A stretch of 62,676 bases of DNA, filler included, from Collodictyon triciliatum (lineage: Eukaryota), in assembly GCA_043381765.1 (NCBI GenBank). It is 31 parts of 31 records of this genome, joined end to end, with 100 filler letters (N's around TTAATTAATTAA, not from the genome) between each part and the next. Parts side by side here need not be neighbours in the genome. Positions count along the whole stretch, not along the records: positions 38,754 to 40,659 come from JBHJMP010009936.1; 30 more parts are not named here. The stretch is one strand, 5' to 3'. Shown here piece after piece: positions 16,089 to 49,254 of this stretch. The stretch's first letter is position 1, and each line of letters starts with the position of its first letter. The notes beneath the pieces were generated by a model. It saw nothing but the letters and a program-made list of their open reading frames with translations. It did not search any database and was not told the DNA's origin. A program made the position numbers and the translations under genes.

Positions 16089-16275
16089 TATTGTCTTATT
16101 GTCTTATTGTCTTATTGTCTTATTGTCTTATTGTCTTATTGTCTTATTGGCTTATTGGCTTATTGGCTTATTGTCTTATTGTCTTATTGGCTTATTGGCT
16201 TATTGGCTTAATGTCTTATTGTCTTATTGTCTTATTGTCTTATTGGCTTATTGGCTTATTTGCTTATTGGCTTAA
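16089..16275. repeat. (TTATTGTC/TTATTGGC)n 8-mer satellite with two interspersed variants
   Basis: Seen directly. Confidence 0.95.
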
Positions 16276-16382
16276 TGTGTTTTATTATTTTATTTTGGAC
16301 AAGGATGTATCTAGTTTGCATTATTGAATAATTGCTATATAGAGTCAATAATAACGAATGTTGTTTGCGTTACCCCACTTTT

Positions 16383-16414
<32 letters not shown>

Positions 16415-16594
16415 TTTTTTTTTGTTTTTTTGTTTTTTGTGTTTTGTGTTTTGATTATATCTTGGAAAACTTTTCTTCTGTTTGATGCATTTGCATTACT
16501 GGGACAAAGAAAAGCACGCATAATGGACCTTCGCGGTTTGTTGAAGGGTTTTGGCTGGATTTTTGGCCAATCTAATATCGCAATTCAATCGTAG

Positions 16595-17736
16595 CGGATG
16601 CCGCCTTTGCCGCACAACAGACTGTCACCTGGGCAAAGGAGAGGAACTTGCCGCTTCGCGTTGCGGCTGTGTATGAGAACCTAAGTCAATCCAGCACATA
16701 TCTAGGTGCAGATGCAATCACAAAGGGATTAGAGACCGACGCAGACGTGGTTATCACGGGGCGTGTGGCGGACGCAGCTTTGTTCCTAGCTCCCATGATT
16801 CACGAATTTGGATGGAGCTCGTCGCTGCATGCTGACCGAATCGCCCAGGGACTAGCCATCGGACACCTTCTCGAGTGTGGCACGCAAGTCAGTGGCGGTT
16901 TCTTTTGGCACGCGGACAAATGGAGAAATGGAGCCTTTGACTGCAACATCCCTTACAGACCAAAGCTCCCAATCGCAGAGATTCACGCTGATGGGACCTC
17001 TATCATGGGTGCTGTAGCTGGGAATTCAGAGTTCTCGCCCCGAACATGCGCCCAACAGCTCTTGTACGAAGTCCATGACCCGAACTGCTATATGACGCCA
17101 GACTTGGCCGTCGACTTCTCGAATGTGCGCTTCCGTCAAAAATCGCCCGGTTTGATTCAAGTAACCGGAGCAAAGTCTCGATTTGTTCCTAGCCATCTGC
17201 TGCGCCTCCATGCCAGACCAGCAGGCTATCGCGGTTGGGGTGAGATATCATACATCGGTCTGAATTCCTTAGAAAGAGCTCGCATGGCCGATGCTCTGGT
17301 CCGTGTGTGGTTCAGCGAGAGATTCCCGCACTCATGTGATAAAATTATGAGCTCTTTCATCGGCCCGCGAGATAACGGTATCTCTTCAGTGTGTAAGCAC
17401 GCTCCGCACTTTGAACTTTCCCAAGAGACAAGACTCCATATGGACGGGATATTTACGAGCGTGGAGGAGGCGAGGATTCTTTGTGAAGAGGTTGACGCCT
17501 TATATACAAATGGCCCAGCAGGAGGTGGTGGGATACGAGTAGGTTTCAACGAAGAGATTGAGCTAGAGCGAGAATTTGTGGATAGAAATAGCATCCATTA
17601 TCATGTTTCTGTGTATGATTCTACGGTGAATGGTGGTTGTGGAGCATATGCCTGCGAAACCAACACAACAAATGCCGCAGATGTCAAATGGGACGCCATC
17701 GAGGACATTTCCAACTGGGGTATGAGTAATACTTAA
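16595..17736 (+). CDS. AtuA-family (DUF1446, acyclic terpene utilisation) protein, large internal exon
   Basis: YLGA...DVVITGRVADAALFLAP, GHLLECGTQVSGG, QLLYEVHDP..Y.TPD, GWGEISY, LYTNGPAGGGG. The exon starts after TAG at 16594; a likely donor lies near 17720. Confidence 0.92.
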
Positions 17737-28680: not shown

Positions 28681-30148
28681 TATTTCTTCAACACTGTAAT
28701 ATTTTCGGCAGTAAAAAGTCAAAGTCAATTACATTTTTTTGTCATTTGTAACATGGCTGTTTTTTACGCTTTTTCAAATGGTGCTGTAATTACACGACAA
28801 AAAGACGCACACACTTCAAATTAGGCGTGGATAAAACAAGAAGGGCATCAAAAACCCAAAACAAAAAGCCAAAACAAATACAGAAACAAAAAATAACGAA
28901 GAAAAAAAAACCGCGCAATGCAAAGACTCGTGTGTTCTTGTTTTTTCGCAAAAAAGAAAAAAAGTTTATTTACACCAAACACAACACGCCGCGTGTGTAA
29001 ATAACTCTTTCCTTGGCAACACTCTCCCTGTCTTCATCCCTGCATAACTTTGTTGTGACTGTGAACATTTCCCATACCGTTTGAAGTATATCGCCCTCAT
29101 TTGCGTTCGAGAAATAAAAAACACAGGTTATCATGGACAGCAGGAAACTTGCTGGAGAAGGCAGAGANNNNNNNNNNNNNNNNNNNNNNNNNNNNNNNNN
29201 NNNNNNNNNNNNNNNNNNNNNNNNNNNNNNNNNNNNNNNNNNNNNNNNNNNNNNNNNNNNNNNNNNNNNNNNNNNNNNNNNNNNNNNNNNNNNNNNNNNN
29301 NNNNNNNNNNNNNNNNNNNNNNNNNNNNNNNNNNNNNNNNNNNNNNNNNNNNNNNNNNNNNNNNNNNNNNNNNNNNNNNNNNNNNNNNNNNNNNNNNNNN
29401 NNNNNNNNNNNNNNNNNNNNNNNNNNNNNNNNNNNNNNNNNNNNNNNNNNNNNNNNNNNNNNNNNNNNNNNNNNNNNNNNNNNNNNNNNNNNNNNNNNNN
29501 NNNNNNNNNNNNNNNNNNNNNNNNNNNNNNNNNNNNNNNNNNNNNNNNNNNNNNNNNNNNNNNNNNNNNNNNNNNNNNNNNNNNNNNNNNNNNNNNNNNN
29601 NNNNNNNNNNNNNNNNNNNNNNNNNNNNNNNNNNNNNNNNNNNNNNNNNNNNNNNNNNNNNNNNNNNNNNNNNNNNNNNNNNNCGCATAGACTTGATGAA
29701 GTTGAAGAGAATCACCAATCAGGCAAAGACGAGCGACAGCAAAAACGAGGCATTTATATCGAGAACCGCCAGCGGTCTCTGTATCGATTTTTCTCCCCGA
29801 GACCCGACCATGTAAGCTGCCCGGCATTCAAACAGCGAAAGGACACCATTTTATTCCAACATAAGTGCAATGTCCTATTTACTTTTTTATCTTAACCTTT
29901 TTATCTCTTTTTTTTATCTTTTTTTATCTCTTTTTTTATCTCTTTTTTTATCTCTTTTTTTATCTCTTTTTTATCTCTTTTTTTATCTCTTTTTTTATCT
30001 CTTTTTTTATCTCTTTTTTTATCTCTTTTTTTATCTCTTTTTTTATCTNNNNNNNNNNNNNNNNNNNNNNNNNNNNNNNNNNNNNNNNNNNNTTAATTAA
30101 TTAANNNNNNNNNNNNNNNNNNNNNNNNNNNNNNNNNNNNNNNNNNNN

Positions 30149-32056
30149 AAGCAACATGCAAATCGTGTCCAGCTGGTGCATGCAACAATAAAACTGGCAC
30201 ATTTAATCAATCATCATGTATTTCATGCCCAAACGGAAGCTACAGCTTATCTGGAAGCTCATCATGCATCTCATGTTCACCAGGACTCTATCAAAAAGAA
30301 AGCATCACAAAAGACTCCGAATCATGCTATGCTTGTCCAAAAGGCTCATTCAACTCATACCCTGGCTCATATGGAAACAAGTCATGCATTGAATGTCCAC
30401 AAGGCACTTGGAATGATAGAGATGGTCAAGCATCATGCACATCATGTCCAGCTGGTACATACAACAACAGAACTGGCTCGTTCAATCAATCATCATGTAT
30501 TTTATGTCCAAACGGAAGCTACAGCTCAGAGAGAAGCTCGTCATGCAGTCTGTGCTTATCAGGATTCTATCAAAAAGAAGAAATCACAAAAGACTCACAG
30601 TCATGTTATGCTTGTCCAAAAGGCTCATTCAACTCAAACTCTGGCTCATATGGAAACAAATCATGCATCGAATGTCCACAAGGCACTTGGAATGATAAAC
30701 ATGGTCAAGCATCATGCACATCGTGTCCACCTGGTACATGCAACAATAAAACTGGCTCATTTAACCAATCATTGTGCATTTCATGTCCGAATGGAAGCTA
30801 CAGCTCAGAAAGAAGTGTATCATGCAGCTTATGCTCACCAGGGTTCTATCAAAAAGAAGGAGTCAAAAAAGACTCCAAATCATGCTATGCTTGTCTAAAA
30901 GGCTCATTCAACTCAAACTCCGGCTCATATGGAAACTCATCATGTATTGAATGTCCACAAGGTACTTGGAATGATAGAGATGGTCAGGCATCATGCACAT
31001 CGTGTCCACCTGGTACATGCAACAATAAAACTGGCTCATTTAACCAATCATTGTGCATTTCATGTCCGAATGGAAGCTACAGCTCTTTTGGAAGTGCATC
31101 ATGCAGCTTATGCTCATCAGGATTCTATCAAAAAGAAGATATCACAAAAGACTCCAAATCATGCTATGCTTGTCCAAAAGGCACATTCAACTCAAACTCC
31201 GGCTCATATGGAAACAAATCATGTATCGAATGTCCAAAAGGCACTTGGAATGATAGAGATGGTCAAGCATCGTGCACATCATGTCCAGCTGGTACATTCA
31301 ACAATCAAACTGGCTCATTCAATCAATCATCATGCATTTCATGTCCAAACGGAAGCTACAGCTCAGCTGGAAGTGCATCATGCAGCTTATGTTCATCAGG
31401 ATTGTATCAAAAAGAAGAAATAATCAAAGATTCAAAATCATGCTATGCATGTCCAAAAGGCTCATTCAACTCAAACTCCGGCTCATATGGAAACAAATCA
31501 TGCATCGAATGTCCACAAGGTACTTGGAATGATAAGGATGGTCAAGCATCATGCACATCATGTCCAGCTGGCACATTCAACAATCAAACTGGCTCATTCA
31601 ATCAATCGTCATGCATTGAATGTCCAAATGGAACCTACAGCTCAGAAAGAAGCGCATCATGCAATTCATGTCCTACTCGCTCAACAACAACCTCAAAAGG
31701 TTCTAAATCAATCGATGAGTGCAAATGCATATATTCTTATGTATCATTCAATGGTGCTTGCACATGCCCTCCGGGACAGTTTGAGGACGAAAATATATGT
31801 GTTCCATGCAGACTTAGTTCATACAAATCAACAAATGGCACAAATTTCTGCCTTTCATGCGGAGATAAGTTTACGACAAAAAATAATGGCTCGATTACTT
31901 CAACCGATTGCGTTTGTAGTACTGGATTTGAACTCAGGAATTCTAATTGCGAATGCAAACCTGGATGGTATGAAAAGCAAAAGAACTGTTACGAATGTCC
32001 ACCAAGCACTTACAATGAAAATTATGGACAGACATTGTGCAAAGAATGCCCAATAA
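30149..32056 (+). CDS. Cys-rich repeat surface protein (GCC2/GCC3, ephrin-receptor-like CxxCPxGxY repeats), internal fragment
   Basis: The frame is open from the contig start, upstream of the listed 30772 start. A 279-bp (93-aa) unit starts at 30166, 30445, 30724, 31003, 31282 and 31561. Many N-x-S/T sequons. Confidence 0.9.
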
Positions 32057-32342
32057 NNNNNNNNNNNNNNNNNNNNNNNNNNNNNNNNNNNNNNNNNNNN
32101 TTAATTAATTAANNNNNNNNNNNNNNNNNNNNNNNNNNNNNNNNNNNNNNNNNNNNTTTCTTTTGTTTTTCTTTTGTTTTTCTTTTGTTTTTCTTTCGTT
32201 TTTCTTTCGTTTTTCTTTCGTTTTTCTTTCGTTTTTCTTTCGTTTTTCTTTCGTTTTTCTTTCGTTTTTCTTTCGTTTTTCTTTCGTTTTTCTTTTGTTT
32301 TCTTTTATTATTGTTGGAGAGGACTGAAAAAACTGTCAAGAG

Positions 32343-34624: not shown

Positions 34625-36130
34625 TTGCTAGCCATCATTTGCGTGGGCGCTACTTGGTGGCCGAGTGGCGGAGAAGTAGTCGGTAATCAGGAATTGCATC
34701 CTGCGGTTTGGCCTGTAGCCTGGGTCTTGTGCTTGCATGAGAGAGGCAAGATGAGGTTTAATATATTTCTCAGCCTCTTTCCACATGTCTCTTCTCACGG
34801 GGTCTGAGTAGTGGAGAACGTACAGGTGGCGGAGGAAGCTATTGAGGAAAGAGATTTGTATGATGTCATTCAGCCTGTTATCAGGAATGGGTGGCTGGTT
34901 GTTGAGTCATGCTTTGTGTGAGTACATGCGCGCTATCCACATAGTCCATAGCGAATGGCCTCGCGTCAATGCCCAGAATGTTTTTGCATCTGGACGCAGC
35001 TGTTGTAGAGGCCCAAATATCGCCTGGATTGGGCCAACAGCCGCAGCTGTCTTGAGTGTCAGTCGAAGAATCTCGCTGGCTGTTTCGCGCAGGTTTTGAG
35101 CGAAAGGACATTGCACAAATGTGTGCTCAATGGATTCATCACCATTGCTGCAAAGTGTGCATTGTTGGGAGACTTTGCCAGCTTTTGCCGCGCGTGTGCC
35201 TATCCATAGCTCCCTATTGGTGATATTAAGCATTAGAGAGCGGCGATTTGGAAGGACTTGCGGGGTTGGTGCTTGTCTCCAGATTGCGGTGAGCGGGGTG
35301 TGGGTGATGCTCAGTGTTTCTCCCCACCGTTGATGTTTTGACTTTTTGTAGGGTGTCGGCGGCGATATTTTGTATCGAAAGAATTTGGAGTAGGCCATAG
35401 CCATCGAGAACTGCATAGACTGTGCACCGTTAGACGAGCGTTCGTTCTTGAGGCGGAAAAAGAATGGAGATGGGATGTCGTATGAGATTGGTCTGCGTGA
35501 GCGACATTTTCCTTTGTTATTCAGGACGGCTGTGGTTGGCTGTGCATATTGTGTGCGGAGTGCGGTGGAGCTTGGCGTTGTGATGTACGAGCCGCCTTCT
35601 TTGAATGAGATTTCTCTGATGGTGGCCGCGATGCCTTCGTGAACCTGTTTGATGATGCAGAAGCCTTTCTGGTTGTCCCAGCATATTTGTCCTGCTGCCA
35701 ATGGCTCGTTCAGGGGTATTGTCATTTCGCAGTGAGTATACAGAATCTGCCAACGCGAGAGCAAAGGCTCTGGTGTATTTGGAGGTGGTCGTGGGATTGT
35801 TCTTTGTTGCAACTGTGTTTTGAAGTCTGCACACAGTTTGGTGATGAGTTTCCACATCCCAGTTTGCCAAAACCCTTTCGGCTGCATGAACATGTCCGTC
35901 CACCACTTCATGGTCAGTGATATCCATGCGGTTTTGGGTGTGATGAGTCCAACGCCTCCTTCTGTGGGTGGCTTAATCAGTGTTTTGATTTTGTATTGCT
36001 GTCTCTTTGTTGTGATGAAGGTGCGGCATATGCTCTCCAGTGTGTCGAGATGCTTTTGTGGTAGATGAGAGCCCTTCATGTTGTGGATGAGGGTCGATAG
36101 CATGAGTTGGTTCCATAGCCTCGCTTTTCC
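34625..36130 (-). mobile_element. L1/Tx1-type LINE ORF2 C-terminal region (post-RT, zf-RVT CCHC knuckle), disrupted
   Basis: KPPTEGGVGL, CTLCSNGDESIEHTFVQC and LWTMWIAR motifs. In-frame TGA at 34907 and a frameshift near 34795. Confidence 0.9.
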
Positions 36131-36647: not shown

Positions 36648-37002
36648 NNNNNNNNNNNNNNNNNNNNNNNNNNNNNNNNNNNNNNNNNNNNTTAATTAAT
36701 TAANNNNNNNNNNNNNNNNNNNNNNNNNNNNNNNNNNNNNNNNNNNNACAAAAAACACATACAAAAAACACATACAAAAAACACATACAAAAAACACATA
36801 CAAAAAACACATACAAAAAACACATACAAAAAACACATACAAAAAACACACACGCAGACAAAACACACACGCAGACAAAACACACCCACAACACATAAAT
36901 ACCCTCCCATTTGCCACAGATTGAAATGAACAATAAAATACGCACACATATATTGTCTGTGAACGTGACGTTGTTCTAATCTATTCAAATTAATACATAT
37001 AG

Positions 37003-38495
37003 GTCTTTTCTTGTCTTTTAACCGTATCTTTGGTTTCATGTGTTCTCTGCACTTTCAGTAACCCTGCTGATATTCTTGTAAAAAAGAAGTATTTTGTCAA
37101 AGACGACACAAGTGAAACCGAAAAGGGTAGTGCTGGAAATAAGATCGATGAATCCACATTTCCTCTTTATTGCCCATTCTGCGAAGTAAATGTGTATGTA
37201 ACTATGTATATTAAATATTTTCCTCCTCTGTGTATATTTGTATCTTATTCCTTGTCCAGTTCATTCTCTCCTTATTATCATACTTAATATATATATGATA
37301 TGAATCCCTGAGTCTTAAATATATTTGCATATATTTAAATTTTTTCAACTCCTTGATAGCTAAACTATCGTGTGTTTTTTTGTTTCATATACTTCTGTTT
37401 AATCTAATTTGATTTTATTTATTCATATGTCCTAGACATATACCTCTAATATCCTATATAATCAAAAAAATTATGTAACTTCCAACCTTTGAAACAGGAG
37501 ACAGAAAAGCAAGCATTGCAGGATATGTGATAAATGTGTTGGTGTTTTCGATCATCGTATGTTTACCTTATTGTTTTTCATTCTACTGTCACTCATTTAT
37601 CTACTTATCAATTATTTCATGTAATTTGAGGTAGAATCATGTCGCCATGAGTTTTTTTTTTTTTTTGATACTATCTTACCTTTCGATACAAAATTATTAT
37701 GAAAATACATTTTACGGCCTACTCATGTTTAGATTAAAATCCTTTTTATAATGTCAATGTTTAGATTGCAAATGGTTAAATAATTGTGTAGGGGAGACTA
37801 ATTACAGGTAATTTACTATATAAGCTCATACAGAGATGGACGCTATGTGTAATTCTTTATGAAAAAACAATTTGGATCGAATGAATGAAACTTTTAAAAC
37901 CATATGATTTATATCATACTTTTATTTTTTCATTTTATTAGAATATTCTTCGTTTATGTCGCTTCTGTTTTTATGACGGCCTCTTGTATATTCATTGTGA
38001 GCTTGGTCTTGATGGTTGGAATTATAAAAAAAGAATCCATTGTATTTGGTATCGTACCAATAAAGGATGGTATGAAGAAAATTTAATTAAATTGATATTA
38101 TAGTTTGTAGATCACTGACTTCACATACACATTTTTTTATTTTTTTTTTAATATAAAGACTGTCTATTAAAAATTATAATTATTGTTCGAATAAAGGAAA
38201 AAAAATTATATTTATTCTCAACGTCAAAAAAAAAGTTTATCCTAAAAGTTCAAAACCACAGCTGTCTTTCATGAACATGTCCATAAGGCACTATCTATTA
38301 GTTTTCATAATTAATTTCCCCCCCCCCCCCCCCTCTTTTTTTTTTTTTTTTTTTTTTTCTCTTGACACATAGCCAACCATGTATTTCCTTCACTCGAAGC
38401 AACAGGATGTGCTACAATTGCTGGATTTTTCGTTTTCATATCCCTGCCGACCTCATATTTAATCGGACAGCTTTTATTCTTTCATATATTTTTAG
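37003..38495 (+). CDS. DHHC-type protein S-acyltransferase (palmitoyltransferase), 5 exons
   Basis: NPAD...YCPFCEVNV|RQKSKHCRICDKCVGVFDH|HCKWLNNCVGETNYR|IFFVYV...|...QLLFFHIFL. An intron splits the DHHC motif. Confidence 0.93.
38185..38200 (+). mobile_element. Possible minimal (about 16 bp) LINE 3'-end stub in a DHHC intron
   Basis: TCGAATAAAGGAAA flanked by AAAAATTATAATTATT / AAAAATTATATTTATT (one mismatch, AT-rich). Confidence 0.55.
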
Positions 38496-38753
38496 GTATA
38501 GCTCTCAAACTTGATTCTTGTTCTGTGCTATTTTGATGACATTTCTTGTTGTTCTAATGGCTCCTTTCTTGACTTTCTGGTTCTGAACCCCCCCCCCCCC
38601 CCCCCTTTCCCCCCCTTTTTTCAATCCCACCCCACCCACCAACACTTTTCATANNNNNNNNNNNNNNNNNNNNNNNNNNNNNNNNNNNNNNNNNNNNTTA
38701 ATTAATTAANNNNNNNNNNNNNNNNNNNNNNNNNNNNNNNNNNNNNNNNNNNN

Positions 38754-39781
38754 TCTTTTCAGCAATCAATTGAATGGTAAATTTTAATTGTTATTTCATG
38801 TATTATTGATGCGAAACTAACTTTATATTACAGGAACAGTTCCAAACTTCAGTGGAATTCCAAATATATTAGATATTTATCTTTCCGGCAACCAGTTGAC
38901 TGGTAAGTTTTAGTTATTACTTTCATGTAATATATATAAAGCTAAATTTACATTACAGGAACGGTTCCAAACTTCAGTGGGATTCCAAATGTTCTAGGAA
39001 TTTATCTTGGCAACAACCAGTTGACTGGTAAGTTTTTATAATAATTTCATGTATTACTGATGAAAACTAAATTTATATTACAGGAACAGTTCCAAACTTC
39101 AGTGGGATTCCAAGTATTCTAATAATTTATCTTTTCAGCAATCAATTGAATGGTAAATTTTAATTGTTATTTCATGTATTATTGATGCGAAACTAACTTT
39201 ATATTACAGGAACAGTTCCAAACTTCAGTGGAATTCCAAATGTTGAAATAATTGATATTTCCAGCAACCAATTGAATGGTAAATTTTAATTGTTATTTCA
39301 TGTATTATTGATGCGAAACTAACTTTATACTACAGGAACAGTTCCAAACTTCAGTGGGATTCCAATCGTTTTAGAGATATATCTTTTCAGCAATCAATTG
39401 AATGGTAAGTTTTAATTGTTATTTCATGTATTATTGATGCGAAACTAACTTTACATTACAGGAATAATTCCAAACTTCAGTGGAATTCCAAATGTTAGAA
39501 TAATGTATCTTTTCAGCAATCAATTGAATGGTAAGTTTTAATTGTTATTTCATGTATTATTGATGCAGAGCTAACTTTATATTACAGGAACCGTTCCAAA
39601 CTTCAGTGGAATTCCAAATGTTAGAATAATGTATCTTTTCAGCAATAAATTGACTGGTATGTTTTAAGTACTATTTCATGTATTATTGGTACAAAACTAA
39701 CTTTAATTACAGGAACCGTTCCAAACTTCAGTGGAATTCCGAACGTTTTAAGAATTTACCTTGATAGAAACCGATTGAATG
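38754..39781 (+). repeat. Tandem array of 125-126-bp exon+intron cassettes (at least 8 units)
   Basis: Introns 38777-38833 and 39153-39209 are identical; 39279-39335 differs from them by 1 nt. Confidence 0.97.
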
Positions 39782-40659
39782 GTGATTTCCACTTATTTTC
39801 CCTTTCTATTTCTTAGATTTTCATATTTTCTCAAACATTAATGAGTAATTTTAGGCGCAATTCCAAACTTCTCAAATTTGGGGAAACTGGAGATTTTCTC
39901 TGTTAATGACAATCGGTTGGAGGGAGAGGTTCCAGATTTCAAGTATTGCGAAAGCATCCAGGAAATAATACTGTTCCGAAATAAGTTGTCAGGCACATTG
40001 CCGATGTTCAATCTGAATAACCTGATAAGACTGGATGTGAGCGAAAACCAAATCAGTGGCTCTATTCCCAATTACTGGATATTGCCTTCAATTAAATCCA
40101 TCGACTTGTCTTGGAACAAAATGAAAGGCACAATCCCAACCTATTTTCAGGAATTACAAGAGCTGAAATCACTCGTTTTATCACACAATAAATTTTCTGG
40201 AAGCATGCCTGATTTATTCTGGGATCTGCCGAATCTTGTCACTATAGACTTAAGAAACAACTCATTTTCAGGAGACGTTGGTGGTTTTATTGTTCCATTT
40301 GCAGGCAATTATTATTTTTATGAAAACCTTTTGCTTGATGACAACCAACTCTATGGAGCATTGAATTGGAGACTTTATAACTCTGTTATTAACGTAAAAA
40401 CATTAAGTATTAAGAATAACAACATCACCAAGCTTGATTACCTTACAACTCTATTGAGATGGAATTCCCTTGACCTCACTGGAAATCCGATTGTTGGAAG
40501 CATTCCTGAATCATACATAGGATTTTCAAAGCTTGAGCATCTGGGATTGAATACAACATCGATGAATCATGGAACAGCTAATTTCCTTCCTGATTTCATG
40601 AATTTCACAACAAGTTTCAATCTGCAAGACGAAACGAAACGCTACCTTTGTCCTTCCAT
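38754..40659 (+). CDS. Extracellular-type (plant-specific class) LRR receptor-like protein with one LRR per exon; internal fragment
   Basis: 69-nt phase-1 exons at 38834, 38959, 39084, 39210, 39336, 39462, 39588 and 39713, then a long exon 39855-40659 of LxxLxLxxNxLxGxIP repeats. Confidence 0.95.
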
Positions 40660-43584
40660 NNNNNNNNNNNNNNNNNNNNNNNNNNNNNNNNNNNNNNNNN
40701 NNNTTAATTAATTAANNNNNNNNNNNNNNNNNNNNNNNNNNNNNNNNNNNNNNNNNNNNTTTTTTTTTCTTTTCCTTTTTTTTTCTTTTTTTCTTTTTTC
40801 TTTTTTTCTTTTTTCTTTTTTCTTTTTTCTTTTGTGCACAAGGAATGTCGAGACAAAACAGCAAGGCAAGACTGTCTGTCCTCCCTGTATTGTTGCAAAG
40901 TTGTGTATCCACAAACCAGCGCTGAATAATTTCCGGTTTGGTGCAGCCAATATGTAATATTTTTCTCTCTATTTCGGGTGCATTTATTCTGGACATGTTT
41001 CGATCAGCAACATGTAAGTAATATCATATAATTTGATTACATATTAAACAGACTAGAACTATTCAGTAAACCTGTGATTATATATATTTTATATACTTAT
41101 AAATTCCACATTATATAGATGACGTCACGTTAGCGAAGCATTCCTTATTCCAGAATTATAAATTTTTATTGAATATAAATAACTTAATCTCATTACGGAT
41201 AATACTCTGTCCAATCTTCCAGGTGCTTTGGCCTTTGTTTTGCATCGGGTGCAGGAAATCGCAGAAATACAACCTGCTTGTGAGTGGTTTAGCCTCGATT
41301 GTGTCGTCGAAGGCGCCTGCTCCCTATCATAAAATCAAGGACAGACTCGGTAATCGGGCTCAGCAATACTGTTCTTTTCATTCGTCATCTTTTATTTCGC
41401 TTCCTTTCGTTTTCTTTTCTTTTTCTTTTTCTTTTTTCATTTCTTTTCTTTACTTTTCTTTTTCTTTATTTTTATCTTTTTTCTTTTGTCTTTTTTCTTT
41501 TGTCTTCTTTCTTTTTTCTTTTTTTATGGCCTTTCTTACTCATATCCCAGTGGTACTTTTGTGATTTATTTACATGTTTTCTTCGGTTTTGAATCATGAA
41601 CTAATTTATTAAACAACCAACAAAACTCCCTGTCTTATTCTTCCAGCAGAATGAATCCTATGTTTTCATCTTACATAATACAAAATAAAAACAACAAATA
41701 TAAGAAACAAGCAAACAAACTGACAAAGACGGCTTGCGATTATTGTACATTTTGTTTTCCGCTACACCTCCCTCGCGTTTTGCATTCCATCCCTTCTTGT
41801 ACTGGAGCTAAGAGTATCTGTATAATCCATAAAAAGACCATCGGGTGCTTTATGGGCCGTTCATTACGCTCAAGACACGTTTAATTTCGACTTTAGCGGT
41901 CCTCCTGAACCAAAACAAAGTAACCCATCTCTATGTCTCATTCATTTATTATGTTTCTCACCACTTTAGCTATTCCCATATTGTTCATATCTGCCTGCCT
42001 AGAACAACTCTTAAAAATACACATTTCTTCGAGTAGAACATTTTCCATATTACCTTACTTGGTTGGCACACTACATAACTTTATTTAGAATTAAAAAGAA
42101 ACGAAGGTACCCTCAAGATTTCTTCATAGAAACATATCATCTAATCCCTTGCAATAGAACTGATTAGTTAGCCTAAATGATTGCCTGAGTATTCACATAA
42201 AATCCAAAATATTCTCTAACCTCAAATCAATACTTTAATCACAGGTACAAGAGCTCTCCTATCTCTGGCAATAGAACAGTCTGCATAGTAAATAATTGAA
42301 AAAATTAGTTCGAATTATACAGGACGAAGGTCATATTTTTTTTCATGGTGATAATCAACTGGGTACTTTCAGTAAATCATGGACAACTGATATCTTCCCC
42401 AAAATACACACGGTTTCACGGACTTGCGTTTCACCGCCAGTTTTCGCCATCTCCAAAATTTCACTCTTCACAACCTCCCAAGACATTAAGACACTGTCAA
42501 TTATCACACAATACAGATATTTCCTTTTCAGGGTTTCCCACGAGTCCCATCTACAACATAGACCGTGATATGGTCACTCAACCAAGACAAAGCGAAGATA
42601 AATTTCAACCACAGATTCGACCGCAGCATATGTTAAGCAGACTTCGCTTCATTAATTATCTCAANNNNNNNNNNNNNNNNNNNNNNNNNNNNNNNNNNNN
42701 NNNNNNNNTTAATTAATTAANNNNNNNNNNNNNNNNNNNNNNNNNNNNNNNNNNNNNNNNNNNNAAAGAGAGAAGAAAAGAGAGAAGAAAAGAGAGAAGA
42801 AAAGAGAGAAGAAAAGAGAGAAGAAAAGAGAGAAGAAAAGAGAGAAGAAAAGAGAGAAGAAAAGGAGAAAAGGGTAGATGATGCTGTTTACCTCTAGGTC
42901 GCGGTTAAATTCATGAAAGCGATCCACCATCCCAGTTGTCGTTGCCTTTGGGGTAGTAGCGAAACAGAGAAGCAAGCAGGTATGGTCGTTAGAGAGGGAT
43001 GAAAACATGGCCAAGAGCAAAAAAAGCGACGCTTTTTCATGGGATAGTGGAGACTTTTTGGTATTATCAGCCACTTTCACTTATTGTTTCTACTTCTGAA
43101 GCTCTTGCTTCGTCTTTGAGGTGGGTCTGTGCCGATCACGCGCGATGTCTGTTTCTTTTGAAGTGAAGATTGTCCTTCTGGTGCGGATTTGATTGAATCT
43201 AGGTTCTCTTCGTATGGACATGATATCCACATTTGCACATCGAGATTCTACCCATCTGGATTCCCTTGATCTGGATTCTTTGACTCCTGATGTAACGCAT
43301 CAGGTGTTTCTTCTGGGGGTTTTATGACTTTCGTTGCGAGGTGGGCGATTTGATTGGAGTGGTAGAAGATTTGCATAACAAGAGAGGCATTCAGCCAAAG
43401 ATTGAATAGCTCCAATGTGCCACATATGGTATGTTTTGATATTGTTGTGAGAATATAATTATTTCATACTTGATTTTTCGACAGAATACCCTGAAGGTCG
43501 AATTAGGTTGGTTGTGTGATGAGACTACATGTGTTAATTTATTTTGTTTGGGTCTGCTTATATTGCCTACTAGAATAAGTATAA

Positions 43585-44769: not shown

Positions 44770-45962
44770 TTTGGACATATAATGCAAGAAGATTTACTAA
44801 TTGAAGCAAAATCAGGATTGAATGTTCCATCTGAGCAAGTTTTGCATTGAACTTGGCTTACTTCATCATTGAAGGTTCCTGGTTCACAATCATTGCAATT
44901 AATATTACTTGTTTTATTACTATATGTACCGGCTGCGCATGAAAGACATGATGATTGACCAGTTAATGGTTGTATGTTCCAGCAGCGCATGAAAGACATG
45001 TTGCTTGTCCAGTTAATTGATTGTATGTACCAGCTGCACATGGATAGCAACTTGCTTGTCTGGTTAATTGATTGTAAGTTCCAGCTGCACATGAAATACA
45101 CGCACTGGAGCTTGTTGAGCCGATGGATGGATTGTACGTTCCAGCTGCGCATGATCTGCAACTTACTTGTCCAGTTAATTGATTGTATGTTCCAGCTGCG
45201 CATGATATACAAGCGCTGGAGCTCGTAGAGCCAATTGATGGATTGTATGTTCCAGCTGCACATGATATACAAGCGTCGGAGCTTGTTGAGCCGATTGATG
45301 GATTGTATGTTCCGGCTGTGCATAAAGAACAAGACGACGTTCCTCCAGCACTATAGCTTCCATATGGGCATAGTTGACAAGACTTTGTGACTGAATCATA
45401 GAACCGACCAGCGACACAAAGTACCCAGATTTTGATTGTATTATCCCAGCTTCCAGAAACAATTTTTGAACCATCAGAAGTAACAGCAACACTGAAAACC
45501 CTATCATTATGACCATTCAATGTGCGAATCAAAGCTCCGTCAGAAAGATTCCAGATTTTGATTGAATTATCATCGCCTCCAGAAACAATTTTTGAACCAT
45601 CAGGAGATACCGCAACACTGTAAACACCGTAAACACCACTAGTATGACCAGTCAATGTGCGAATCAAAGTTCCGTCAGAAAGATTCCAAATTTTGATTGA
45701 ATTATCATCACCTCCAGAAATAACTTTTGTGCCATCAGGAGTTACAGCAACACTCCAAACATCATTAGTATGACCAGTCAATGTACGAATCAAATTATCT
45801 TGCCCTTCAACAAGACACATTTGGCAGTGGAGCATCAATCCTAAAAATATATCAATTAAAATTCTATGTATTTTGAAGTCAATAAAGTTAAAACAATTAA
45901 AGTATCATTAATAACTCACCCAACAGCAACAAAGCTGCAAAAGTCTTTAAATTCCATCTCAT
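44770..45962 (-). CDS. Signal peptide + 3 WD40 repeats + Cys-rich (GCC2/GCC3-like) repeats; 1-nt frameshift near 44967; 3' truncated
   Basis: Exon 45962-45920 and phase-1 intron 45919-45841 give MRWNLKTFAALLLLGLMLHCQMCLVEG-QDNLIRTLTGH. Then three GH...IKIW repeats and CxSCAAGTYN repeats. Confidence 0.85.
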
Positions 45963-48322: not shown

Positions 48323-49254
48323 CTCTTGCAGGGCGACGGCTGACCGCAGCATCGCTTTGCCACTGTGTTTTTATTTATGAATCAACGCATCAGACAGTCA
48401 CTCCCCTCCTGTTCGGTATCCCTATTTTTTATACACTATTTCCTTATTCAAATGCCGTTATCTCCATTCCACCGCCCGTACACCAACTGCAAAGATGGCT
48501 GGGCGAGGAAAAGCCTCTCACAAACTATCACTTTCCCTTCACTCTGCCAAAGTGTAGAAGCCTAAGTTGTCCAGACCATAAACTACGAATAAAAAAACAA
48601 GAAAAAACAAAAAAACAAAAAAAACAAAAAAACAAAAAAAACAAAAAAACAAAAAACAAAAAAACAAAAAACAAAAANNNNNNNNNNNNNNNNNNNNNNN
48701 NNNNNNNNNNNNNNNNNNNNNTTAATTAATTAANNNNNNNNNNNNNNNNNNNNNNNNNNNNNNNNNNNNNNNNNNNNTTTTTCTTTCCTTTTTTCTTTCC
48801 TTTTTTCTTTCCTTTTTTCTTTCCTTTTTTCTTTCCTTTTTTCTTTCCTTTTTTCTTTCCTTTTTTCTTTCCTTTTTGAGAAAAGAGTTCAATTTCGAAT
48901 ATCACAGCGGATAGGAGTGTGTTTACAAGAGGCATTCAAGATTAAATACGCCATTTACATCATGCACGATTGTAAATAGGCGATGTGGACCATCGATTTT
49001 TATCATCGGGGCCCAGAAAGCATCAACAACATCAACATATCAGTTTATAAAAAAACACCCGGACTTTCGAAGTGGAGGGACAAAAGAAACAAAATTCTAC
49101 TCCTCCTACACCGGCCAAAATCCGTACGACGCTATTCACCTTTCCATATCCAAATTGACATAACTTACATTTTATCACCGCATAGCTCCTCATTTGTTTC
49201 CTTACCAGTCGTTTTACATATTACATGATTTATTGCTTTTTTATTTTTATTTTC

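Follow-up and report, generated by a model that had tools for sequence, protein, structure and literature searches.

The closest described counterparts of the locus analysed here, a tandem array of leucine-rich repeat (LRR) exons in Collodictyon triciliatum, are known from brown algae, a ciliate and a fungus. In Ectocarpus, the available text of PMC3341825 describes ROCO genes with one LRR per exon, symmetric exon phases, exon shuffling and selection acting at the LRR concave face, together with speculation on adaptive immunity, and the accessible part of PMC11378527 extends the idea, with alternative splicing, to four brown algae and cites gonadotropin receptor genes as having the same one-LRR-per-exon structure. 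In the young LRR genes of Tetrahymena, exons of exactly 90 bp follow one another in tandem and the introns share one phase; these arrays are explained by unequal crossing-over within and between genes, their exon number is highly variable, and a comparable uniformity was not known to the authors, in the available sections of that paper, from any other eukaryote (PMC6564038). In the HNWD genes of Podospora (het-d/het-e) concerted evolution of the repeats is combined with hypervariable contact residues, as set out in the accessible portion of PMC1805685. The C. triciliatum array occupies positions 38754-39781 of a stretch of 62,676 nt (the window) from GenBank assembly GCA_043381765.1. A first-pass annotation of this DNA had read it as an LRR receptor gene built from interchangeable exon-intron cassettes, able to generate a combinatorial, immune-like repertoire. 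The latter idea is not new, being a hypothesis already published for the brown-algal ROCO genes (in the available text of PMC3341825 and PMC11378527). We describe here the anatomy of the array, the distribution of variation within and between its units, and the explanations that can account for it.

An LRR solenoid encoded in part by tandem exon-intron units

Part of the LRR solenoid is encoded by tandem units of 125-126 nt, and the remaining LRRs by one long exon (Table 1). Tandem Repeats Finder reports 38754-39783 as 8.2 copies of a 126-nt period (85% matches, score 1384), and the at least eight units claimed in the first-pass annotation, each a 69-nt phase-1 exon with a 56-57-nt intron, are indeed present as eight complete exons and eight GT-AG introns. 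Including the terminal intron, all nine introns are in phase 1 and all nine donors start GT. The eight cassette donors read GTAAGT (four), GTAAAT (three) or GTATGT (one), the acceptors TTACAG (seven) or CTACAG (one), all ending YACAG, and a CTAAC-like branch motif is visible in the cassette introns. Each of these introns cuts a Gly codon after its first base, and every one of the eight exons starts GA and ends G. Splicing yields an LRR reading frame of 459 amino acids with no stop, and an alternative in-frame acceptor of the terminal intron, at 39845, likewise gives no stop. In the unspliced DNA no frame stays open beyond one unit, and of 12 open reading frames (ORFs) of at least 35 amino acids the longest within the array has 55. 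Read-through of the introns was rejected as an alternative to splicing, the 57-nt introns having stops in all three frames of the standard code and the 56-nt introns shifting the frame; a ciliate-type code was also considered, and is argued against by long standard-code ORFs elsewhere in the window.

The repeats themselves are recognisable in all eight cassette exons, which read [IV]xx[IM]x[LI]xxNxL over codons 12-22 with a period of 23 amino acids. The long exon (P0001) gives Pfam matches to LRR_1 (63.5 bits, cut-off 20.6), LRR_4 (66.8, cut-off 27) and LRR_8 (65.3, cut-off 27), with E about 1e-18, these profile matches covering the long-exon protein and not the spliced cassettes. With significant profile matches and an LxxLxLxxNxL core whose 23-residue period lies in the 20-30-residue range of LRRs, the protein is an LRR protein, and the cassette tail NQL[NT]GTVPNF is of the GxVP type seen in extracellular plant-type LRRs. 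The approximately 11 LRRs of the long exon are mutually divergent and also plant-type. Tandem exons of equal length, each encoding one repeat and separated by introns of one phase, are what characterises an exon-shuffled LRR array, and all eight exons and nine introns conform to this. As the annotation had it, the scaffold is close to invariant (GTVPNFSGIP in seven of the eight units, GIIPNFSGIP in one), and the eight strand variants it listed are all correct. A 23-nt scaffold word, allowing up to three mismatches, matches eight times in the window, always on the plus strand and always within the array, and the 57-nt intron word at the same tolerance matches four of the eight introns; shuffled sequence predicts no match for either.

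Uniform flanks, a variable patch and their history

Variation among the units is greatest in codons 11-19 (27 nt, the β-strand face), here termed the patch, the remaining exon codons forming the scaffold. The x positions of the LxxLxLxxN motif line the concave β-sheet of LRRs and correspond in the cassettes to codons 13, 14, 16, 18 and 19. These five codons carry 3, 5, 2, 4 and 4 distinct residues, where the remaining 18 average 1.56, and their sum is matched or exceeded by 26 of the 33,649 possible choices of five codons (p=0.0008), in agreement with the earlier placement of the variation on the binding face. Nucleotide diversity (pi) over the eight units is 0.094 in the scaffold codons, 0.158 in the introns, 0.177 in the whole exon and 0.306 in the patch. 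The further claim that the introns are better conserved than the exposed codons thus holds when they are compared with the patch (p=0.005), but not when they are compared with the whole exon (p=0.53) or with the scaffold codons. Similarly, introns said to be identical or nearly so in most units are so in five of the eight (units 1, 4, 5, 6 and 7, differing pairwise by 0-9%, with 38777-38833 and 39153-39209 exactly alike), but not in units 2, 3 and 8 (14-33%), and 28 of the 57 intron columns vary across the eight.

Purifying selection acts on the scaffold, where non-synonymous differences per site (pN) are 0.035 and synonymous differences (pS) 0.21, with a non-synonymous to synonymous ratio by minimal state changes of 0.25. 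The corresponding ratio is 0.93 for the whole patch. At the five exposed codons pN is 0.39 and pS 0.38, and the ratio of 1.49 there comes from a number of changes too small for a test (13 replacement, 2 silent). The patch therefore looks little constrained rather than demonstrably selected, and the excess of non-synonymous change at exposed positions that would accompany the first-pass proposal is not shown. As to the introns, no Rfam family was found in them, the one sub-threshold match lying elsewhere and on the opposite strand, and their predicted folding is not unusual (z=-0.31), and a functional RNA in the intron was rejected on these grounds. Because the intron sequence is free to vary, with neither RNA family nor unusual fold, the near-identity of five introns reflects recent common ancestry and not constraint.

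Comparison of the units pair by pair reveals a mosaic. Patch distance lies between 0.19 and 0.44 in 27 of the 28 unit pairs and is uncorrelated with the distance between the upstream introns (Mantel r=0.06, p=0.42); differences in the 3' scaffold, which comprises the final four exon codons, go together with those in the downstream intron (r=0.54, p=0.02). When the 56 polymorphic columns were permuted in a GENECONV-like test of the 28 pairs, with p values calculated per pair, significantly long identical tracts emerged in five of them (1-4, 4-5, 1-5, 5-6 and 1-6; p<=0.0014). The longest identical tract covers 39 of the 56 columns, running from the upstream exon tail through the intron and into the next exon, where it ends at the patch. 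Intron and flanking scaffold thus form long identical tracts bounded by variable sequence, which agrees with this part of the first-pass annotation. Units 1 and 4 show this most simply, with 12 differences in the exon and none in the intron (hypergeometric p=0.0005), and over units 1, 4, 5, 6 and 7 introns differing by 0-9% are joined to patches differing by 22-41%, several patch codons differing at two or three positions. Units 6 and 7, by comparison, have identical patches and differ at 4 of 57 intron sites, three sites in the 5' scaffold and two in the 3' scaffold. With identical patches and so few intron differences they look like a recent duplication of a whole unit.

We think it probable, on balance, that the array has been shaped in the germline by duplication of units and by gene conversion or unequal exchange between them, with a weakly constrained binding face. 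Under this explanation the array would have grown by unequal crossing-over that duplicates entire exon-intron units, units 6 and 7 providing a fresh example, and in part of the array gene conversion or unequal exchange would maintain the uniformity of a block of about 105 nt. Each exchanged tract would comprise an exon's final four codons, the intron and the next exon's first ten codons, and the 27-nt patch lying between tracts, as diverged as the oldest introns, would escape homogenisation, perhaps through mismatches that stop the conversion tracts, through selection that prevents the turns from becoming alike, or through both. The patch would evolve nearly freely (ratio near 1) beside a constrained scaffold (about 0.25), and the outcome would be a rigid, uniform scaffold that displays different exposed residues on each turn. 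With perfect homology over blocks of about 105-112 nt, units would be likely to be gained, lost and exchanged in the course of evolution, without any implication of programmed diversification at the level of the cell.

The same distribution of differences could also arise if units 1, 4, 5, 6 and 7 were young whole-unit duplicates in which strong diversifying selection had changed the exposed residues through point mutations and conversion played no part. This would fit the similarity of the five introns beside their diverged patches, and the concentration of variation on canonical binding-face positions with a ratio at the exposed codons above 1; positive selection is moreover described at the equivalent positions of Ectocarpus LRR exons in the available text of PMC3341825. 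However, the ratio for the whole patch is below 1 and the exposed codons have pN about equal to pS, and a rate 6-10-fold that of the introns would be needed across nine codons, including codons hit two and three times. Nor is the patch always the faster part, as units 6 and 7 have nine differences in the flanks and none in the patch. We consider such an origin unlikely and rank it below duplication with conversion.

Several points nevertheless weigh against the account based on duplication and conversion. Eight short units give little statistical power, and the subset of near-identical introns was picked post hoc, its pi of 0.046 being biased downward. The tract test fits equally well a history in which flanks were homogenised around an old patch and one in which young units carry a fast patch, strictly synonymous patch differences are too few to decide between the two, and the 13 replacement against 2 silent changes at the exposed codons leave room for positive selection. 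The evidence for cassette order and number is a single short contig from a very fragmented assembly, in which the junction of exon 3 with exon 4 is without independent support, a metagenome piece (X3, see below) diverging from the contig at the exon 4 patch. Finally, the membrane part of the protein is deduced from homologues of only 33-41% identity, as the contig ends before it.

Table 1. Coordinates of the array, its units and the adjoining features, numbered along the window.
Feature	Position	Strand	Remarks
Artificial linker, upstream	38654-38753		Same linker recurs about every 2 kb; true upstream gene sequence missing
Tandem cassette array	38754-39781	+	Partial exon 0 and eight units of intron and 69-nt LRR exon, period 125-126 nt
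First 112 nt of contig	38754-38865	+	Exact copy of 39130-39241 (exon tail, intron, scaffold of next exon)
Partial exon 0	38754-38776	+	Last 23 nt of an LRR exon; same as tails of exons 3, 5 and 6
Intron 1, 57 nt	38777-38833	+	Identical to intron 4
Exon 1, 69 nt, phase 1-1	38834-38902	+	Patch NILDIYLSG
Intron 2, 56 nt	38903-38958	+	Most divergent, 28-33% from all others
Exon 2, 69 nt	38959-39027	+	Patch NVLGIYLGN
Intron 3, 56 nt	39028-39083	+	16-32% from others
Exon 3, 69 nt	39084-39152	+	Patch SILIIYLFS; overlapped by metagenome pieces X2 and X3
Intron 4, 57 nt	39153-39209	+	Homogenised group
Exon 4, 69 nt	39210-39278	+	Patch NVEIIDISS
Intron 5, 57 nt	39279-39335	+	1 mismatch to introns 1 and 4
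Exon 5, 69 nt	39336-39404	+	Patch IVLEIYLFS
Intron 6, 57 nt	39405-39461	+	2 mismatches to introns 1 and 4
Exon 6, 69 nt	39462-39530	+	Patch NVRIMYLFS; scaffold GIIP
Intron 7, 57 nt	39531-39587	+	7% from introns 1 and 4
Exon 7, 69 nt	39588-39656	+	Patch as in exon 6 (0 of 27 nt differ)
Intron 8, 56 nt, edge unit	39657-39712	+	14-32% from others; matched exactly by metagenome X1 from 39665 on
Exon 8, 69 nt	39713-39781	+	Patch NVLRIYLDR; X1 piece 100% identical
Terminal intron, 73 nt, phase 1	39782-39854	+	GTGATT...TTTTAG; outside the cassette intron family
Long intronless exon, 805 nt	39855-40659	+	Open to contig end; about 11 more LRRs and start of C-terminal flank
Artificial linker, downstream	40660-40759		

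Contig limits, environmental DNA and cassette repertoire

The window consists of about 31 parts of approximately 1.9-2.0 kb (GC 37.4%), slowly decreasing in length and joined roughly every 2 kb by linkers of 44 N, a 12-nt spacer with stops in all frames and a further 44 N. Given that these parts are separate short contigs, genes that lie side by side in the window are not genomic neighbours. The array sits at the start of a contig of 1906 nt, 38754-40659 (JBHJMP010009936.1), with the remainder of the gene missing on either side, and tblastn with the two closest full-length homologues finds a match in the window only at 38824-40657. The 112 nt with which the contig begins are its longest exact repeat, the remaining exact repeats within the array being 61 nt or shorter. 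As the contig opens within an exact repeat the array is truncated and eight units are a lower bound, the assembler evidently having stopped inside the repeat.

Most contigs of the window begin or end in perfect microsatellites with units of 8-13 nt or in long poly-C or poly-T runs (16089-16290, 30000-30048, 32157-32305, 36748-36850, 40763-40833, 42765-42869 and 48778-48877; also 38320-38360 and 38588-38625), and such simple repeats appear to fragment the C. triciliatum assembly. A pattern scan gave few other intron candidates in the window.

Related DNA was found in four freshwater or subsurface metagenome runs (X1-X4), with 6-12% of sampled words and as short contigs that represent parts of the array contig only; such short pieces are uninformative on cassette order, copy number, expression and splicing. 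Two 151-nt pieces from lake water (X1) are 100% identical to 39665-39815 and 39821-39971, thereby corroborating, from an independent sample, the last cassette, the terminal intron and the beginning of the long exon. In X3, exon 3 and intron 4 are matched with two differences and the piece leaves the contig exactly at the exon 4 patch, and X2 contains an exon-3-like unit with a patch that is a mosaic of contig cassettes. From the subsurface run X4 come numerous short pieces with 85-90% identity to the long LRR exon (39919-40659) and one identical piece of 106 nt at 40554-40659, similarities which indicate that a related gene or organism occurs at that site. The metagenome pieces join the same scaffold and intron to patches absent from the contig, so that more cassette variants exist than the contig displays, although these extra variants could be unassembled units, paralogues or other strains. 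Among metagenome contigs of the Joint Genome Institute (JGI) the 23-nt scaffold word had no match, and a protein-guided scan of the same contigs gave 425 pattern matches, none of which was confirmed by tblastn.

These data bear on whether the array is itself real. A collapsed or chimeric path through paralogous LRR genes, or through a longer array, would make the number and order of the cassettes and some pairings of intron with exon artefacts of assembly, a concern raised by the extreme fragmentation of the assembly, whose contigs measure about 1.9-2.0 kb and frequently terminate in simple repeats, by the 112-nt exact repeat at the start of this contig and by the departure of X3 at the exon 4 patch. 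However, apart from the copy at the contig start no exact repeat in the array is too long to be bridged by ordinary reads, the last cassette, the terminal intron and the beginning of the long exon are matched exactly by X1, and every unit is distinct, with frame and splice sites kept. We therefore regard an artefact as quite improbable, and a wrong order would still leave the cassette family with its pattern of variable patch and uniform flanks.

The variants seen in environmental DNA could also be viewed as products of a combinatorial system, in which cassettes are skipped or chosen in transcripts, or recombined in mitosis between identical introns, to give immune-like recognition. The exons are suited to this, all being 69 nt long and in phase 1-1, such that any exon-exon junction rebuilds the Gly codon; the earlier point that the symmetric exons can be skipped in frame is correct as arithmetic, frame and Gly junction codon both being kept. 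The blocks of perfect homology, of 61-112 nt, are possible recombination substrates, and the metagenome patches not present in the contig include one that is a mosaic of its cassettes. Alternative transcripts with different sets of LRR exons are described for Ectocarpus ROCO genes in the accessible part of PMC11378527. Nevertheless, the extra variants are explained equally by unassembled units, paralogues and other strains, and the isoforms of the closest homologue, from Diphylleia rotans, which we considered as a possible sign of LRR skipping, differ by a 249-residue N-terminal truncation and by C-terminal variants, that is at the termini and not by LRR units. The scaffold-word search found no reverse-strand or orphan cassettes in the contig or the window. 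Introns of 56-57 nt are usually intron-defined, so that mis-splicing leads to intron retention rather than exon skipping, which also counts against a combinatorial system. In brown algae, moreover, no somatic recombinants are reported in the available text of PMC11378527. A combinatorial repertoire therefore seems to us highly improbable, and we would be very surprised if clonal cells were to show different stacks of patches, whether by mitotic unequal exchange between the 105-112-nt blocks or by regulated in-frame skipping. Were it true, this would be a recognition repertoire of a deep-branching freshwater protist, independent in origin of those of animals, plants and brown algae, of which the unmatched environmental cassettes would be the footprint.

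The encoded protein and its place among known systems

The best database matches of the C. triciliatum protein are three Diphylleia rotans transcriptome proteins, with 41% and 33% identity over 100% of the query, the long exon aligning to residues 240-740 of a D. rotans homologue. Searches with the long exon gave 1427 matches among longer proteins and 9 among proteins of similar length, all of them generic LRR proteins of at most 41% identity and none belonging to the source genome, and the best solved relatives are the ectodomains of FLS2 (4mn8_A, E=4.3e-70) and GSO1 (6s6q_A, E=4.6e-70), with those of MIK2 and PEPR1 also found. An alignment-free structure prediction of the long exon has a mean pLDDT (predicted local distance difference test) of 52.1 and supports no claim. 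The D. rotans homologues have an N-terminal hydrophobic, signal-like segment, followed by LRRs, a Cys-rich region and at least four hydrophobic segments, and it is the segment between their LRRs and Cys-rich region that aligns with the end of the contig. By homology the array would thus lie in the middle of the ectodomain of a receptor-like protein, and the gene would encode a multi-pass membrane LRR protein, the contig ending before the membrane part; in the complete product a signal peptide, LRRs and a Cys-rich stalk would be expected, together with several segments that span the membrane.

With Pfam, neither a kinase nor a ROC-COR domain is detected in the two closest homologues of full length, and as only LRR families come up in these and in the contig protein this is not a ROCO gene. 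The contig, truncated on either side, shows neither a kinase nor an N-terminal cap nor a single-pass transmembrane segment. The D. rotans proteins P0005 and P0003 contain a multi-pass membrane region without any Pfam family above cut-off (DUF7630 reaching 22.4 bits, cut-off 27), and an ESM Atlas look-up of the C-terminal part of the homologue gave leads only, to DUF7630, Ephrin_rec_like and TRP-like clusters (0.94-0.95). The predicted combination of LRR ectodomain, Cys-rich stalk and multi-pass membrane region may represent an undescribed receptor family.

Other contigs of the window contain further coding sequences, some internally repeated. An AtuA-family ORF (16576-17733, plus strand, 386 amino acids, E=4.7e-71) is a single exon on a contig that shows no intron, and has its best match in a D. 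rotans transcript (45% identity), with land-plant proteins close behind (40-47%). A 279-nt tandem repeat at 30149-31663 (5.4 copies, 88% matches) lies inside an ORF at 30151-32055 (plus strand, >635 amino acids) made up of Cys-rich Ephrin_rec_like repeats (13 stretches, E=4.8e-95), another internally repeated protein of extracellular type. On the minus strand, 44966-45904 joins WD40 and Cys-rich Ephrin_rec_like repeats in one frame, an unusual pairing if this is a single exon, and is overlapped by tandem repeats of 51, 60, 111 and 135 nt (44923-45318 and 45508-45761). The ORF at 34910-36130 (minus strand) has a zf-RVT domain, the zinc-binding region of reverse transcriptases (E=1.1e-07), and is probably the remnant of a retroelement.

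The C. triciliatum array adds an example to an architecture and an evolutionary mechanism that are both known already, and in the open-access literature we found no such array described in collodictyonids or in a plant-type LRR protein of multi-pass membrane architecture. Its practical value is limited until the whole gene, its genomic copies and its transcripts are known. It offers a clean and compact case of a repeat protein in which a uniform scaffold carries varied contact residues, and if the homogenised block includes the entire intron, as we propose, non-coding DNA would share in the concerted evolution of a coding array. It also extends one-LRR-per-exon arrays to an extracellular-type LRR protein, in a lineage whose best matches are collodictyonid (CRuMs).

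The likeness is greatest to the LRR-ROCO genes of the brown algae Ectocarpus and Saccharina which, as far as the accessible text of the two papers goes (PMC3341825, PMC11378527), likewise have one LRR per exon, exons of equal length and symmetric phase that start at the G of GxxP, variation on the concave face, and an associated idea of an immune-like repertoire generated by shuffling and splicing. Those exons, however, are of 72 nt and in phase 2 (PMC11378527), they encode cytosolic LRR-ROC-COR GTPases and they are separated by longer introns, possibly with orphan or reversed LRR exons, whereas in C. triciliatum 69-nt phase-1 exons encode plant extracellular-type LRRs and alternate with tiny, partly homogenised introns. 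The Tetrahymena genes resemble the present locus in their uniform arrays of LRR exons and, in the youngest group, in intragenic repeats that include the introns, but in the available sections of PMC6564038 their exons measure 90 bp and their introns are in phase 2, and the genes number in the thousands and are associated with a retrotransposon, while from C. triciliatum a single fragment is known, with 69-nt exons and phase-1 introns. The same mechanism as we propose here is invoked for the Podospora HNWD genes, where exchange keeps the repeats near-identical, the codons of the interaction surface are hypervariable and repeat number varies. In that case, on the accessible portion of PMC1805685, the repeats are WD40 repeats within one exon, with no intron in the unit, the proteins are intracellular and NLR-like, positive selection and inter-locus exchange are demonstrated, and repeat-induced point mutation (RIP) is proposed to contribute.

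With the plant LRR receptor kinases and receptor-like proteins (FLS2, GSO1, PEPR1 and others), the closest solved structures by sequence, the protein shares the NxLxGxIP type of repeat. It differs in having a cassette repeat of 23 rather than 24 amino acids, and the C-terminal part of its D. rotans homologues consists of a Cys-rich region and several hydrophobic segments, a kinase being absent. The variable lymphocyte receptors (VLRs) of jawless vertebrates are also built of LRR cassettes that differ mainly on the concave face, but these are copied somatically from non-spliced donors into an incomplete gene, while the cassettes of C. triciliatum are contiguous exons with canonical splice sites in one reading frame, and nothing points to a somatic process. 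Brown algae, ciliates, plants and animals are all distant from the C. triciliatum lineage, and the distribution of one-LRR-per-exon arrays thus suggests that the architecture has originated independently and repeatedly.

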